This document shows positions 1 through 34,173 of a stretch of 36,794 nucleotides of DNA, one piece after another. Source of the DNA: a virus (taxonomy: Duplodnaviria > Heunggongvirae > Uroviricota > Caudoviricetes). The notes beneath the pieces are model-generated. The model had not been told where the DNA came from. It saw only the letters and a program-made list of their open reading frames with translations, and searched no databases. A program made the translations under genes and the position numbers. The stretch lies in IMG/VR virus record IMGVR_UViG_2713896909_000013. One strand, 5' to 3'. How positions within the stretch are numbered: the stretch's first letter is position 1; the number at the start of each line of letters is the position of its first letter.

Positions 1-1053
1 TTACGGGGTAATGCCAACCGCTGCCGCCACTTTGTCGCCACTTGGCAGCGTTGCCAGAGGATTGAAACGGAGCGCCGTTTCCAGATGATCCGGTGCCAGA
101 TGTGCGTAACGCATAGTCATTTTTATATCGTGGTGTCCGAGAATTTTTTGTAAGGCCAGAATGTTTCCACCCGACATCATGAAGTGCGCCGCAAACGTAT
201 GGCGCAGAACGTGTGTGAGTTGACCGCGAGGGAGCACGATAGACGTTTTTTCCATCACGGATAAAAATTGAAAATAGCAGTCTGTGAAGAAATTGAACCC
301 ATCAAGCGCCATGATCTCTTCGTAAAGCTCTTTACTGATAGGGATGCTTCTGTTTTTCTTCCCCTTCGTTCTTACAAAGGTAATTCGGTATTTGGTCACC
401 TGTGAACGAGTAAGATTTACGGCTTCTCGCCAGCGTGCGCCTGTGCTTAAGCATATCTTAACTACCAGTGCCAGAATTGGGTCCTGACGTTTGCAATCAG
501 CCAGTAATTCAACAATCTGCTCATGGGTAAGCCATGCCATCTCTTTTTCTGCGATGGTGAATTTTCGCATGTTCTCCAGTGGGTTCGGATACGACCATTC
601 GCCCAGGCGGGATAGTTCGCTAAAAACACTACTTAGATAGCTTTGCTCCAGGTTAATGGTGACCGGGCTTGCTCCTTTCTTCCATTTCTCGCTGAAGTAG
701 ATCTCACCTGTCAGGCGTTTATCTCGATAGTGGGCAAACATTTTAGAGGTTAGATCAGTTGCAAGGGGATTGCCCAGAGCGTCAACCATCAGCAGCAATT
801 TGTCATAGACATGCTGCCCAGCAGTCAGTGATTTACCATGTAGTTTGAACCATAGCTCAACCACGTCTTTCAGTGTTCGACGATCCACTGATTCACCTAG
901 CCAGGGCTTTGCTTCGGTTTCTTCCATCGTGTGACGCTCAAAAGCCAGTGCTTCGCCTTTGGTGGCGAATTGTTTACGCACACGACGCCCACTACGTCCG
1001 GCGGGGTAACATTCGCAAAGCCATTTTCCTGTGGTGAGTTTTCGTACAGCCAT
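1..1053 (-). CDS. int: tyrosine integrase, P2 Int-like
   Basis: C-terminal catalytic region (ARWRE...HVLRHTFAAHFMMSGGNILALQKILGHHDIKMTMRYAHL) typical of tyrosine recombinases; start set at the ATG at 1053 (MAVRKLTTGK) preceded by GGAGGG, not the longer ORF reaching 1131. Confidence 0.9.
   Translation of the reverse strand: MAVRKLTTGKWLCECYPAGRSGRRVRKQFATKGEALAFERHTMEETEAKPWLGESVDRRTLKDVVELWFKLHGKSLTAGQHVYDKLLLMVDALGNPLATDLTSKMFAHYRDKRLTGEIYFSEKWKKGASPVTINLEQSYLSSVFSELSRLGEWSYPNPLENMRKFTIAEKEMAWLTHEQIVELLADCKRQDPILALVVKICLSTGARWREAVNLTRSQVTKYRITFVRTKGKKNRSIPISKELYEEIMALDGFNFFTDCYFQFLSVMEKTSIVLPRGQLTHVLRHTFAAHFMMSGGNILALQKILGHHDIKMTMRYAHLAPDHLETALRFNPLATLPSGDKVAAAVGITP
20..40. repeat. attL: candidate attL core (left copy of the 21-bp direct repeat)
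   Basis: GCTGCCGCCACTTTGTCGCCA; matches 33940..33960 with one mismatch; lies inside the 3' end of int. Confidence 0.55.
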
Positions 1054-1241
1054 AAAAAATGCCCTCCAATAGAGAGCATTTTTACTGTATGTATAACCAG
1101 TGTCAATGTATGAAATCCTGCGACCATACATCTCACTGAAGCCATAATGAAGTAGGCTATTCTTTTTGCTATGTGATCATGTAACTTTTGCGGTTAACCT
1201 GTGGCTCATTTTTATTTTAGGCGCAGATATAAAAGCAAAAG

Positions 1242-1433
1242 TTATCGTGAGTTTTTAGTACAGATTTTTTTGGATTTACTAATAGTTCCATCATTGCAAA
1301 CGAATTTGCCATCAGACGTACAGTGAGAAACACCTCCCTTTTTCCCTGAGCAGGGATAATTTCTAGCATAGGTAGCTAGTGGGTTTAATAACAAAGAACA
1401 TGACAAAACCACAAAAAATACCTTACCAAGCAT
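1242..1433 (-). CDS. small secreted cysteine-rich basic peptide of unknown function (cargo gene between int and cI)
   Basis: 63 aa; hydrophobic N-terminal signal-like segment ([23 protein letters not shown]), then a Lys-rich region with 4 Cys; strong RBS GGGAGA 5 nt before the ATG; AT-rich local composition. Confidence 0.5.
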
Positions 1434-1448
1434 AATTTTCTCCCGGTA

Positions 1449-2018
1449 CTATTTAACATACTTGACTGTTAAACTTATAATTTTACCAATTATTTCAATG
1501 TCTTCTATCTTACATTCAAAGGCTCTGTTTCCACCCTCGACGAAGATTCTTCCACCGGGTAAACGAGTAATGTCACGGATCGTTATTTCGCCATCAATAC
1601 TTATTACCCATTTACCATCACGTATATCATCAAATTCCTTATCACAAATAAATTCAGAATTATTATCTGTGATTACAAAAAGATTCTTGAATGCCGACGG
1701 TAGAAATTCTCTATCGAAAATATAAAAACCGTCTTCACACAAGGCCCCATCAGATAATACATATTTAGCAACTTCCATAGTATTTGTATTACCTGAAGTT
1801 TGCTTTGAACCATGCCCGGTTGTGAGCCAATTAAGCGAGGTGCCTGTTTCAAGGGCGCACTGGATTACCCATTCTGCTGGGAATGAGTCACGCATGTAGC
1901 GTGTGGCGAGTGTACTTTTAGAGATTCCTAAATGATCGCACAACGCCTGTCGAGTCTTGAATCCATAAGCTTCTACCATGCGCTCTATGGCGCCTCGTCC
2001 GCCTTTCTCCAAATTCAT
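1449..2018 (-). CDS. cI: CI-type immunity repressor (186 CI-like)
   Basis: About 190 aa with an N-terminal HTH-like region; sits between int and the divergent apl/cII genes as in phage 186; start set at the ATG at 2018 with RBS GGAGTGA. Confidence 0.8.
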   Translation of the reverse strand: MNLEKGGRGAIERMVEAYGFKTRQALCDHLGISKSTLATRYMRDSFPAEWVIQCALETGTSLNWLTTGHGSKQTSGNTNTMEVAKYVLSDGALCEDGFYIFDREFLPSAFKNLFVITDNNSEFICDKEFDDIRDGKWVISIDGEITIRDITRLPGGRIFVEGGNRAFECKIEDIEIIGKIISLTVKYVK

Positions 2019-2042
2019 GGTCACTCCAAGTGAACTTTTATC

Positions 2043-7305: not shown

Positions 7306-7325
7306 TACTGTAAATATAAACAGTG
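7306..7325. promoter_or_regulatory. LexA (SOS) box
   Basis: TACTGTAAATATAAACAGTG matches the CTGT-N8-ACAG LexA consensus with an AT-rich spacer; about 40 bp upstream of the ORF at 7367. Confidence 0.7.
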
Positions 7326-8086: not shown

Positions 8087-9664
8087 ATGGATATCAACTA
8101 TGTTGTTTCAAAAATGGGGTTCGTAGATGATCTTATTAATGCAGGTTCATTTGATTCTGCCTATAAAAATGTAAAGGATATTCTTAACGGTATCGATGAG
8201 ATAAATACAATCAAAGAAAATAGAATAATTATATTATCTAATTTGGCCGGAAATCTTATTGATATCGGAAGTTTTAGTAATGTAAAAAATATAGCGGAGG
8301 AAGGCTTAAATATCTTTATAAACAATAAAAATGAATTTCTGACTATAATGAAAGAATCCTTATATTACTATAACTTGGCAAATGGAATGAGCGCAGTTCT
8401 TGATTTTAATCCTAATGACAATGCAGATATTGATAGTTTCATTAAGCTGAATGATGTAAAAAATAATTACTGGAAAGCGTTTAAACTTTCACAAGAAGAT
8501 GGATGGGTGCCCCCTGATTTAATAGTTAATCTAGCTAATGTATTAAAAAAACAATATCGTATATCTGAATCAATGGATTATTATGAACAAGCAATATCTA
8601 TTGATAACTCAATTCCTCAGGCGTGGGTAAACAGATCTGAGGCATTAGAATTGCTTAATGAATTATCTACAACATATACATATAAAATGATTAAAGAAGT
8701 TATTCGAGGTTATGAGTGTGCAATAAAGTCAGGGAAATGTTTTCCTTCATGGAAGGTTGCTCTTCAAAGAAAAATAAAGTACAACGAAAGTATATTGAGT
8801 GAATCATGTGTATATGGGATAGAGGATATAAGTACAGATGAAAGGCTCACGCAGGAGGAGTATGATACTTTATCAAACTACCAGAGGTTTTGTATAGATA
8901 ATAATCTAATGTTGTCTGATCATTCGCTATATTGCAATTGTTATGCGTCATCTAAAGATAATATAACTATTGCTACCACCGAGGAAGGTGTGTTTGGTGA
9001 TTTTATAGTGCCAATGGAAATGGTGTTAAATAGACTTAAAGCTGAGTATTCCTTAGCACGAAAAATGTTTTTTGAATATAAGGTTGATAGTGAGTTTTTT
9101 GATGAGGATTCGGAGGTATGTTATTCTGAATTGTATAATGGAGAAATATTGTATGAAAATGTTGAGAAGTTAAGGGTTGCATTTAGAGCTTGCTTTGGTA
9201 TCTTGGATAAAATAGCAGTTGCTCTGTGTCAATTATTTGATTTAAAACCAGATAGAGGACATATATACTTTCATAACTTCTGGCGGATTAGTGATGAAAA
9301 AAGAAAGCTTAAAATAAACAAAATAAATAATAAAGGATTGCTGGGTTTGTTTAGTATTGCTATGGATTTGAATGATAAAAATGGTGAGCTTGCTTTTTTT
9401 AAAGAATGGAGGAATGATTTAGAACATAAACTGTTAGTTATTCACGAGAAAGACATGTTAGTTGATTTATATAATTCTTATGGATTTTTTGATGAGGTGA
9501 GATTTATTGAGAAAGAAAAGTTTGAGAAACAGCTCTTACAACTCATGAAAATTGTGAGATCAGCCGTTATTCTTTTTGTGTTTACCATACGTATAGAGGG
9601 GAAAAAAAGTATTCCTAAAGATATGTTGACCATTAAAAATACCATCGAGAGAAAAGTATTGTAG
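8087..9664 (+). CDS. cargo protein 1: TPR-like N-terminal region with C-terminal HEPN-like domain (Rx4H motif); candidate abortive-infection RNase
   Basis: 525 aa, very AT-rich relative to the phage backbone; RBS AGAGGA and a TATAAT-like -10 upstream; RNDLEH (Rx4H) at about 9410..9427; TPR-like helical repeat signature in the N-terminal half. Domain calls are from motif reading only. Confidence 0.45.
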   Translation: MDINYVVSKMGFVDDLINAGSFDSAYKNVKDILNGIDEINTIKENRIIILSNLAGNLIDIGSFSNVKNIAEEGLNIFINNKNEFLTIMKESLYYYNLANGMSAVLDFNPNDNADIDSFIKLNDVKNNYWKAFKLSQEDGWVPPDLIVNLANVLKKQYRISESMDYYEQAISIDNSIPQAWVNRSEALELLNELSTTYTYKMIKEVIRGYECAIKSGKCFPSWKVALQRKIKYNESILSESCVYGIEDISTDERLTQEEYDTLSNYQRFCIDNNLMLSDHSLYCNCYASSKDNITIATTEEGVFGDFIVPMEMVLNRLKAEYSLARKMFFEYKVDSEFFDEDSEVCYSELYNGEILYENVEKLRVAFRACFGILDKIAVALCQLFDLKPDRGHIYFHNFWRISDEKRKLKINKINNKGLLGLFSIAMDLNDKNGELAFFKEWRNDLEHKLLVIHEKDMLVDLYNSYGFFDEVRFIEKEKFEKQLLQLMKIVRSAVILFVFTIRIEGKKSIPKDMLTIKNTIERKVL

Positions 9665-10005: not shown

Positions 10006-10065
10006 TGCGCGCAAGCATAGATTCTGTAATATGTATGGCACATAGCAAATGACAAGGTGATTATT

Positions 10066-11805
10066 ATGCATGCGATCTTGAAACAATACGTCGAAGATCT
10101 TTCTAACCAATTTGCGATAGAAGAAGATGAACCGAAACTCTTCGAGTATTTTTGTAATTATGTTATTGCTTCTAAAAAGTATTTAGGACGATTTAGCCCT
10201 ATCGATATCACTACTCAAGAGGATGATGCCTCATTAGACGGAATTATCTTTCTTATTGATGGTGAATTAATAACTACTGTTGATGATGCTGAGGCGATAT
10301 TTAAAACCCATAAAACATCATTGCCAGTGGAGTTAATACTTACTCAGATTAAATCTGGTGAGGCTTTTGTTAAATCAGATATTGCAAATTTCAAGATTGG
10401 CTTGGATGATTTTTTAAGTCTTAAACCAAAATTACCAAATGGTATCTATAACACTCAAGCTATTGAAATATTGAAAGTAATATTTGCAAATGTAAAAAAA
10501 ATTAAAAACAAAAAACCATCGCTTACAGTTCATTATTGCACTAGTGGTACTTATGTTGAAGAGAGAGAAATTAAAGCTACATTTGATATAATTAAAAAAT
10601 CATGCTTCGATACTGACTTTTTTGATTCTGTTGACGTGAGACCTCTCGGGCGTAAAGAACTAATGGATATGTGGATATCCATAACCGAAAAAAATGAGGC
10701 TGAGTTACAGTTGATTGATTACATAGGTATCGAGGCTATGCCAGGTATCCCTCAATCATATATTGCAATTGTAAAAGCAAAGCATTTTATTGAGAAGCTT
10801 GCAAAAGATAGTGATGGAAAAATAAAAGAGTCAATTTTTGAAGAAAATATACGTGCGTTCTTAGGAAGTGATAATAATGTTAATAATAAAATATCCTCAA
10901 CTTTAGAAGATAAAAAAATAAAAGCAAAACAATTTCCAGTGTTGAATAATGGAGTGACTATAATTACTCCAGAGTTATCTATACAACCAAACACAAAAGT
11001 TATAAATCTTACAAATTATCAAATTATTAATGGTTGTCAAACAACTAATACACTCTTCCATCATTACGATAATTTAAATGATGATGTTGAGATTGTTGTC
11101 AAATTTATAGAGTCTCAAGATGCTGATGTTGCAAGTAGCATAATTGAAGCAACAAATAGTCAATCAGCAATTGAAGGAGCAGCGTTTTTTGCATTGCGTG
11201 AAAAAGCTAAAATGGTGCAGAAATATTTCGATCTACAGAGGAAAGACCCAAAACTGGAAAGTATATATTTTGAGCGGCGTGAAAATGAATATCGGCCATA
11301 TGATATACAATCTACACGTATATATGATATTAAAGAACTGGCTCGTTGCTTCATATCTGTATTTAAGCGGAACCCGCACAATGCTGCTAGATATGTTAAA
11401 AAAGTACTTAGCGAAAGCGATAATATAATATTTGGTGAGGCCGATAATGAGTGCGCATATTATACTGCGGCGTATATATGTTATAAGTATAATACTATGA
11501 TTAACGGGCGAAGAGAAAATGCACAAAAGTATAATAAATATAGATGGCATATTGCAATGTTATATCCTTGGGTCGTAAATAAAAAGGTTGAGAAAGTTGA
11601 ATTAAATTCAAAGAAAATGAGTGCCTATTGTGAGCGTATTCTTAAAACATTTTATAATGACAACTATATTAAGCATTTTTCAAAATGCCATGAGATAATT
11701 GATGCTCTTGCTTTAGATAATGAGAATGGTGTTACAGATGATCAACTAAAACGTGCACGATATACTACTAGTTTAATTGAAAAAGCTACTGAGATTTTGA
11801 AATAA
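10066..11805 (+). CDS. cargo protein 2: AIPR-like (abortive infection phage resistance family-like) protein with a possible PD-(D/E)xK-like N-terminus
   Basis: About 579 aa from the ATG at 10066 (RBS AAGGTGA); very AT-rich; NGCQTT motif at about 11029..11046, which I associate with AIPR-type proteins; N-terminal D...QxK pattern (FLIDGE...LTQIK) compatible with a restriction-endonuclease fold. Confidence 0.45.
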   Translation: MHAILKQYVEDLSNQFAIEEDEPKLFEYFCNYVIASKKYLGRFSPIDITTQEDDASLDGIIFLIDGELITTVDDAEAIFKTHKTSLPVELILTQIKSGEAFVKSDIANFKIGLDDFLSLKPKLPNGIYNTQAIEILKVIFANVKKIKNKKPSLTVHYCTSGTYVEEREIKATFDIIKKSCFDTDFFDSVDVRPLGRKELMDMWISITEKNEAELQLIDYIGIEAMPGIPQSYIAIVKAKHFIEKLAKDSDGKIKESIFEENIRAFLGSDNNVNNKISSTLEDKKIKAKQFPVLNNGVTIITPELSIQPNTKVINLTNYQIINGCQTTNTLFHHYDNLNDDVEIVVKFIESQDADVASSIIEATNSQSAIEGAAFFALREKAKMVQKYFDLQRKDPKLESIYFERRENEYRPYDIQSTRIYDIKELARCFISVFKRNPHNAARYVKKVLSESDNIIFGEADNECAYYTAAYICYKYNTMINGRRENAQKYNKYRWHIAMLYPWVVNKKVEKVELNSKKMSAYCERILKTFYNDNYIKHFSKCHEIIDALALDNENGVTDDQLKRARYTTSLIEKATEILK

Positions 11806-33939: not shown

Positions 33940-33960
33940 GCTGCCGCCATTTTGTCGCCA
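33940..33960. repeat. attR: candidate attR core (right copy of the 21-bp direct repeat)
   Basis: GCTGCCGCCATTTTGTCGCCA, 20/21 identical to 20..40; begins 2 bp after the ogr stop codon. Confidence 0.55.
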
Positions 33961-34018
33961 TCGTTAAAAAACAGTGTTTCTAACATCATGATTTTAAACA
34001 GCTTAAATTTCAGGCAAC

Positions 34019-34061
34019 AAAAAACCCATCAACCTTGAACCTAAATGGCGGGGTTGATGGG
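34019..34061 (-). terminator. rho-independent terminator (minus strand) downstream of ybjL
   Basis: On the minus strand CCCATCAACC-loop-GGTTGATGGG followed by TTTTTTG; lies in host DNA between the att core and the ybjL 3' end. Confidence 0.5.
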
Positions 34062-34173
34062 CTCCACAAAATGGGGACATCAAAGAAAAGCAGTGGCACT
34101 AATTAAGACTGATGCCCCGAAGAAAAGTTCTGCGCTTGTGCAAAAAAATTTCATTCTCAGGGCAACTTCAGGT

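Follow-up and report, generated by a model that had tools for sequence, protein, structure and literature searches.

Phage proteins with a signal peptide that act in the periplasm are known from P1 (Sim) and T4 (Sp), where they stop incoming phage DNA or entry functions by mechanisms that involve protein targets and not DNA binding. In Vibrio phage K139, which is related to P2, the PL promoter is followed by cI, orf2, glo, and int, and Glo is a Sec-exported periplasmic protein that is expressed in lysogens and involved in phage exclusion (PMC4870250). Dns of the Campylobacter element CJIE1 is a mobile-element DNase that acts on DNA outside the cytoplasm and limits its uptake, and the blocking of DNA uptake by periplasmic DNases encoded on prophages is an established strategy (PMC12378983). 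Here, we analyzed the IMG/VR record IMGVR_UViG_2713896909_000013, a stretch of 36,794 nucleotides (nt) referred to below as the window, which represents an E. coli P2/186-like prophage with apl/cox-like, cII, fil, and replication genes on the plus strand to the right of cI. The subject of this analysis is a short open reading frame (ORF) of 63 amino acids (aa) between the repressor gene cI and the integrase gene int, whose predicted product matches the YdcA family.

The window gene shares with glo its place in the lysogenic PL operon between cI and int as well as a Sec signal, export of the window protein being predicted from its signal peptide. In contrast, Glo is 137 aa long, is not rich in Cys or Lys, and is separated from cI by orf2, whereas the window ORF follows cI directly. 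Homology between the two proteins was rejected, as hhalign returned a probability of 5.5% and aligned only the signal peptides. P1 Sim and T4 Sp are larger than the window protein, and we know of no homology between it and either of them. YdcA domains fused to SNase, Endonuclease_NS, or PLD domains look like the DNase class of prophages and integrative and conjugative elements; the window protein, in contrast, corresponds to the accessory domain only, without the catalytic domain of secreted DNases. With the YdcA family, it shares the signal peptide, the core PCSGxKGG[IV]xxC-x(3-5)-F[IV]CxDGxxSxSKxxC, a length of about 60 aa, and a basic character, and it matches the mobile, prophage-borne subfamily NF007463, whereas the chromosomal protein of K-12 represents NF007462. 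Membership in this family names the protein and leaves its molecular function unexplained; the family is uncharacterised.

The gene downstream of cI and its product

The gene and the parts of its predicted product were located as follows:

1242..1433, minus strand: coding sequence of the YdcA family, 63 aa plus stop codon (ORF list, NCBIfam, PHROG, and RefSeq name)
1439..1444, minus strand: Shine-Dalgarno sequence GGGAGA, 5 nt 5' of the ATG of the ORF (direct sequence reading)
1365..1433, minus strand: predicted signal peptide, residues 1-23, with a predicted signal peptidase I cut after T-Y-A23 (Ala at -1, small residue at -3, hydrophobic core)
1245..1364, minus strand: mature domain of 40 aa (composition, AlphaFold, and codon differences)

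Read on the minus strand, TACCGGGAGAAAATT separates the cI stop codon TAG (1451-1449) from the ATG of the ORF, a gap of 15 nt. An earlier note on this DNA had described a 63-aa ORF on the same strand as cI with the ribosome-binding site GGGAGA, and both were found as described; the range that it gave, 1132-1448, comprises the ORF, its ribosome-binding site, and about 110 nt of non-coding spacer.

The product was compared with curated profiles. It matched the NCBIfam equivalog NF007463 (PRK10040; PRK10040.1-2) over residues 5-63 with 114.6 bits (cutoff 93; E 1.3e-33) and PHROG 6000 at 3e-34. An identical protein in a public collection (P0001) carries the precomputed Pfam annotation PF27300 'YdcA', the same domain is annotated in sister loci, and RefSeq names the product 'YdcA family protein'. 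The local copy of Pfam-A, which is older than PF27300, gave only an insignificant match to GULLO2 (E 0.076). Against the equivalog of K-12 YdcA, NF007462, the protein scored 68.5 bits with a cutoff of 118, indicating that it belongs to a paralogous subfamily and is not an orthologue of K-12 YdcA. The homology search led to a catalogued family (YdcA, PF27300/PRK10040), with core chromosomal copies, that the earlier note had overlooked. UniRef labels the identical protein 'Conjugal transfer protein', a name for which no support was found and which was not used as evidence, and the shared name of 'ydcA' in the gonococcal genetic island is apparently coincidental.

A profile search of 1.84 billion representative sequences yielded 459 family clusters at E<=1e-3. 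The signal peptide is followed by the four-Cys core PCSGxKGG..C..F.C.DG..S.SK..C, and P27, C28, S29, K32, G33, G34, C38, F44, C46, D48, G49, S52, S54, K55, and C58 were invariant in an alignment of 30 sequences. The segment was present in 669 of the 5426 complete E. coli genomes (about 12%), and a second E. coli allele, 67% identical, occurred in 9 genomes. Among E. coli, Klebsiella, Yersinia, and Haemophilus, the mature domain was 76-94% identical, and it was still so between the more distant of these lineages, in which cI was only 28-37% identical. A DNA search of the phage collection matched only the int part, this immunity region being absent from the deposited phages.

Codon differences provided a further line of evidence. 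Over the 32 codons of the ORF core, the window and the second E. coli allele differed at 20 synonymous and 2 nonsynonymous positions (proportion of synonymous differences, pS, 0.96; of nonsynonymous differences, pN, 0.027); the synonymous sites of the core are saturated while the protein is nearly unchanged. The short reading frame and the AT-rich region might have suggested a non-functional chance ORF in spacer DNA. This explanation is effectively refuted by the curated hidden Markov model cutoff that the product passes, by a family of 459 clusters whose position after cI is kept in five lineages, and by the saturated synonymous sites beside an almost constant protein. From these comparisons, it is shown or nearly shown that the ORF is a real gene under strong purifying selection and not a product of chance.

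The N-terminus has the features of a Sec signal peptide, with one Lys, a hydrophobic core of 12 residues (mean Kyte-Doolittle value 2.9), and the c-region N-P-L-A-T-Y-A. In the family alignments, the Ala at -1 was invariant or nearly so and the residues at -3 were mostly small, and the protein is predicted to be cleaved after Ala23. The resulting 40-mer would contain 4 Cys, 7 Lys, 2 Arg, and 2 Asp and would have a mass of 4.3 kDa, a pI of 9.7, and a net charge of about +7, which agrees with the earlier description of a signal peptide followed by a Cys- and Lys-rich mature part of 40 aa. The basic character extends to the family, as the 30-residue core has a mean net charge of +3 and 81% of the cores carry at least +2. 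AlphaFold predicted a short beta-hairpin with a predicted local distance difference test score of 84-91 across residues 31-60, and the four Cys probably form two disulfides. Alleles share only 19-36% identity in the signal peptide but 76-94% in the mature part; a drifting signal peptide joined to a frozen mature part is the pattern of an exported functional protein.

We also considered whether the product could be a lipoprotein. The signal-peptide end was checked for the pattern [LVI][ASTVI][GAS]C by inspection, and no valid lipobox was found. Cys12, with V-L-S before it, lies too early, and the hydrophobic core continues after it; among homologues, this Cys is either absent or preceded by I or V at -1, whereas the A-x-A-type site ahead of the mature part is kept. 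That the gene is real and that its product is exported and a member of the YdcA family is, as one joint claim, highly probable.

Linkage to cI and the cargo slot before int

The gene upstream of the ORF was assigned as follows:

1449..2024, minus strand: cI repressor gene of the 186 type (Pfam Phage_CI_repr, 2.8e-33, and Phage_CI_C, 2.7e-27)

The genes cI and int adjoin each other in 186 and SopEPhi, and the 115 nt from C to int in P2 hold no gene. The ydcA-like gene is absent from this junction in all three phages, as expected of a moron, and the window carries an extra gene relative to P2 and 186, as the earlier note had stated. Relatives carry other genes in the same place. In Escherichia phage vB_EcoM-813R9, the slot holds a 558-aa ATPase that is annotated as 'chromosome segregation ATPase' and matches PD-Lambda-1 at 3e-120 (L004, 3091-4767). 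In sister E. coli and Klebsiella prophages, PDC-S20, a KAP NTPase (1e-171), lies between ydcA and int (L011, 4198-5529). HP1 has four small ORFs in the slot, and in HP2 a YdcA-like ORF stands beside a secreted OB-fold protein (tRNA_anti-like) whose PHROG is named 'superinfection exclusion Sie-like'. These assignments to PDC-S20 and PD-Lambda-1 are matches in PADLOC-DB v2. The cI-int junction is variable cargo space and a known defence and exclusion hotspot. It has been described in PMC9122126, and according to a preprint 8% of P2 defence systems lie between integrase and primase (bioRxiv 10.64898/2026.02.27.708500); YdcA is mentioned in neither.

The earlier note had regarded the gene as an AT-rich insertion and as a moron. 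The AT-richness is real, with a G+C content of 34-36% in the ORF region compared with 45-51% in int, but it is not specific to the ORF, as the 3' half of cI is equally low in G+C. Local blastn aligned cI and the ORF as one collinear block with about 71% nucleotide identity to the second E. coli allele and to the Klebsiella allele, indicating that the two genes diverged together. Five lineages had 15, 23, 17, 49, and -1 nt from the cI stop to the ORF start, and the diverged alleles always lay directly after cI. Haemophilus phage HP2 (and S2) carries the homologue as an ORF of 60 codons that lacks annotation and whose ATG overlaps the cI stop. A promoter scan found no promoter of its own in the 15-nt gap between cI and the ORF, and a strong hairpin lies downstream at 1055-1083. 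By these comparisons, the gene appears to be part of an old collinear unit with cI rather than a free-standing insertion of distinct composition.

The earlier note also took the gene to be likely transcribed together with cI. Co-transcription in the lysogen is very likely because the two genes lie on the same strand, the gap between them is 15 nt, and no terminator-like site was found between them on the minus strand. PL operons are annotated in HP2 and K139.

Candidate functions of the YdcA-family protein

The gene is very likely the second cistron of the lysogenic cI transcript of the prophage, and we propose that its product acts outside the cytoplasm. The protein would be exported by Sec, cleaved after Ala23, and probably oxidised to two disulfides, giving a strongly basic 4.3-kDa mini-protein of the YdcA family that would act in the lysogen periplasm. 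There, the basic domain could bind nucleic acid or another polyanion and so hinder the entry of foreign DNA, that of superinfecting phages and possibly also conjugative or transforming DNA. An exclusion-type lysogenic-conversion factor that works by polyanion or DNA binding in the periplasm is, of the functions considered, the one that we favour, although with reserve. Such a factor would resemble K139 Glo in its position and compartment.

One line of evidence for the proposed binding function comes from the domain's fusion partners. A fusion census covered 149 representatives from the best 150 of the 459 clusters, most of which were stand-alone proteins of 60-140 aa, with a few tandem repeats. 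All recognisable enzymatic partners among them were secreted nucleases of three unrelated folds, namely Endonuclease_NS (3), SNase (2), and a PLD-like domain (1). Both SNase fusions, which consist of a signal peptide, the YdcA domain, and a staphylococcal nuclease, were located in metagenomic P2-like phage contigs by gpU, gpD, and the tape-measure gene (L028, 5001-5669; L033, 2600-3229). That one small basic domain has been joined independently to nucleases of three folds speaks for a function connected with nucleic acids, most economically substrate binding, rather than for envelope modification. This bears on the lysogenic-conversion or exclusion factor that the earlier note had suggested. 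That part of the suggestion fits a defence and exclusion hotspot with Glo as a positional precedent, whereas envelope modification is disfavoured by the nuclease fusions; the list of functions as a whole is too broad to confirm or refute. The family also occurs in a conserved two-gene module, in which a YdcA-like gene is paired with a membrane-anchored partner of 210-320 aa (phrog_23546/21802). This module was found on 4-5 kb plasmids of Acinetobacter and Psychrobacter, one of them typed as MOBQ-mobilisable, and also in Moraxella phage Mcat15, where it lies among tail genes (L007, 728-1697; L008, 2932-4091; L009, 3438-4264).

We next compared the protein with known structures. The sole match in PDB, and the top one both by sequence and by Foldseek, was Dis2 (Lpg0823) of the Legionella Dot/Icm cap (PDB 7MUC/7MUD, chain AN). 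Dis2 has two lobes and five disulfides, lies near the outer membrane, contacts DotK, DotC, and DotD, and is dispensable; it was reported to have no obvious homologues outside Legionellales (PMC8486379, PMC12716638). Both proteins are secreted, with a small domain pinned by disulfides that carries the motif GG[IV]xxC...G..VCN[DN]G..S. In contrast to the two lobes, five disulfides, and association with Dot/Icm genes expected of a Dis2-like cap subunit, the window protein consists of one four-Cys domain and is encoded in a prophage without type IV secretion system (T4SS) genes. The match had an E value of 3e-5 at first, in an alignment that included part of the signal peptide. With a profile of the mature part only, it fell to E 0.034, the level of LDL-receptor class A repeats, matches that we regarded as chance similarities of cysteine pattern. 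PF27300 was only 'faint' on a Dis2 orthologue, and hhalign gave a probability of 83% over 21 columns only. Because the retest without signal peptide was weak, Dis2 was lowered from 'homologue' to 'probable relative'; homology is probable and not established, and the two lobes of Dis2 are probably degenerate YdcA-like domains. A metagenomic orthologue of Dis2, P0228 (L029, 3001-3243), appears to be truncated N-terminally by a mis-called start.

Several observations weigh against an exclusion factor that binds DNA. A consensus scan of the window did not reveal the PL promoter, and the 63-aa protein matched no defence model in PADLOC-DB v2. Nuclease fusions made up only 6 of the 149 representatives from the best 150 of 459 clusters, and a basic surface could equally bind phospholipid, lipopolysaccharide, or peptidoglycan. 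Core-genome copies of YdcA lie by hom, dsbC, and cysS, in contexts that are not mobile, and K-12 ydcA has been linked only to tolerance of acid and 3-hydroxypropionate (PMC7642389). Dis2, the one probable relative of known structure, binds outer-membrane lipoproteins and makes no contact with the DNA/effector channel (PMC12716638).

Some of these observations can be read as signs of a factor for host fitness or envelope stress, which, like chromosomal YdcA under acid or organic acid, would benefit the lysogen directly. Deletion of the chromosomal, K-12-type ydcA sensitises E. coli W to 3-hydroxypropionate, and the gene is described as controlled by YdcI and induced by acid (PMC7642389); the core-genome copies and the frequency of the prophage allele in E. 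coli (669 of 5426 genomes) point the same way. However, the window protein is not the K-12 equivalog (68.5 bits against 118), and a fitness role would leave unexplained why the fusions are exclusively to nucleases and why the gene is placed repeatedly in exclusion and defence slots and on small mobilisable plasmids. We consider this role unlikely. The match to Dis2, with its contacts to DotK, DotC, and DotD near the outer membrane (PMC12716638), would suit a periplasmic plug that docks on lipoprotein assemblies close to the outer membrane, such as T4SS, secretins, pilus bases, or receptor complexes, and blocks conjugation or phage entry without binding DNA. The conserved membrane-anchored partner on small MOBQ plasmids and in Moraxella phages is consistent with such docking, which we judge improbable even so.

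Two further explanations concern the phage itself and its competitors. The presence of a YdcA gene, or of a YdcA-SNase fusion, among tail genes of Moraxella phages and metagenomic P2-like contigs could indicate a role in the phage's own life cycle, in which the protein might shield or chaperone phage DNA in the periplasm, neutralise the periplasmic nuclease EndA, or assist lysis or release, and the association with nucleases could then mean regulation and not a shared substrate. In the window and four other lineages, however, the gene lies in the lysogenic operon after cI and not among the late genes. It is absent from 186, P2, and SopEPhi, indicating that it is dispensable for the phage cycle, and a Sec-exported protein is not packaged into virions, so that such a role is quite improbable. 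A small cationic protein with four Cys also recalls a defensin-like antimicrobial or competition peptide freed by leakage, vesicles, or lysis, and a YdcA-family gene is among the loci specific to antimicrobial-positive Pseudomonas strains, which is a correlation only (PMC13541209). Yet no dedicated exporter or immunity gene adjoins the ORF, a Sec signal reaches only the periplasm, and the extreme conservation across genera together with core chromosomal copies is atypical of bacteriocins; this explanation is very improbable.

Returning to exclusion by nucleic-acid binding, the proposal can be extended to the family. The YdcA domain would be an unrecognised periplasmic or extracellular nucleic-acid-binding module that secreted nucleases have recruited repeatedly, the cI-coupled copies in P2/186/HP-type prophages would form a new class of exclusion or DNA-entry-blocking proteins that is widespread from Escherichia to Haemophilus, and Dis2 would be a duplicated, degenerate derivative without this function. 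In this full form, the proposal is doubtful. The family was already known and the slot is already a known hotspot, so that the finding is not categorically new; no report of a cI-YdcA coupling conserved from Escherichia to Haemophilus, of the unannotated gene in HP2/S2, of fusions exclusively to nucleases, or of the probable relation to Dis2 was found in the searchable literature.

YdcA is a remaining E. coli 'y-gene' without a molecular function, and the prophage allele is among the most strongly constrained genes of the lysogeny module. Linkage to the repressor, location in an exclusion and defence slot, and fusions to three nuclease folds together give a cheaply testable hypothesis for an anonymous protein. 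If this hypothesis is true, a very small periplasmic player in prophage exclusion would have been found, along with a functional handle on chromosomal YdcA and possibly on Dis2. Should it prove wrong, the gene would remain a well-defined and abundant marker of lysogenic conversion.

The int-proximal region and the prophage

The region between the ORF and the end of int contains the following features:

1107..1241, minus strand: AT-rich non-coding spacer 3' of the ORF (local blastn)
1078..1106, minus strand: promoter-like site of int, TTGACA-17-AAAAAT, whose spacer contains the palindrome CTGG-N8-ACAG (1085-1100) (promoter scan)
1055..1083, minus strand: hairpin of 13 bp with a U-run just before the ATG of int, the 3' arm of which holds the int Shine-Dalgarno sequence GGAGGG
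1..1053, minus strand: integrase gene, 350 aa (Pfam Int_N and Phage_integrase; annotated in RefSeq with 1053 nt)

The true start of int is at 1053 and not at 1131, the start of the mechanical ORF. Positions 1143-1249 had no counterpart in the sister prophages, which carry the PDC-S20 gene there instead; local blastn did not reveal this spacer to be recognisable as a scar of PDC-S20. The block upstream of int was conserved in five loci and marks the constant right-hand boundary of the cargo slot; it comprises a -35 element of the TTGAC type, the palindrome CTG(T/G)-N8-ACAG, a weak -10 element, and a hairpin with a U-run. This arrangement suggests that int has its own promoter, unlike int of 186, which overlaps cI.

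The 56-nt segment 1045-1100, which includes the hairpin, had a folding free energy of -20.8 kcal/mol (z = -5.6), and hairpins of different sequence occurred in the same place in E. coli allele 2, Klebsiella, and phage 813R9. The hairpin at 1055-1083 is a candidate for an element that ends the cI-ydcA transcript, gates int translation, or does both. Transcripts that start at the putative int promoter would lack the 5' arm of the hairpin, so they could be translated differently from read-through mRNAs.

The CTGG-N8-ACAG palindrome in the spacer of the int promoter resembles an SOS box, and the sister loci have a perfect CTGT-N8-ACAG; int may be controlled by LexA. The only other match to CTGK-N8-ACAG in the window is at 7308-7323, just 3' of replication gene A, and is a perfect palindromic SOS-box core, CTGTAAATATAAACAG. 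At the matching position, 186 has the LexA-controlled tum promoter. In the 3' end of cI, a near-consensus sigma-70-like site, TTAACA-17-TATAAT (1453-1481, plus strand; 11 of 12 positions), reads antisense into cI and could have arisen by chance in this AT-rich DNA.

A 21-bp direct repeat, GCTGCCGCCA(C/T)TTTGTCGCCA, occurs at 20-40, inside the 3' end of int, and at 33940-33960. The two copies are likely att cores, which would give a prophage of about 33.9 kb. The host small RNA gene rybB lies at 34016-34094 on the minus strand (Rfam, 106.5 bits), 55 nt from the right end of the prophage, and rcdA adjoins int in an annotated E. coli genome with this segment. The interval between gene A and the portal gene, a classical P2 cargo hotspot, encodes a 525-aa protein with only a weak TPR match (8087-9661, plus strand) and a 582-aa protein that matches AbiU (10057-11802, plus strand; PADLOC, 2.7e-107).

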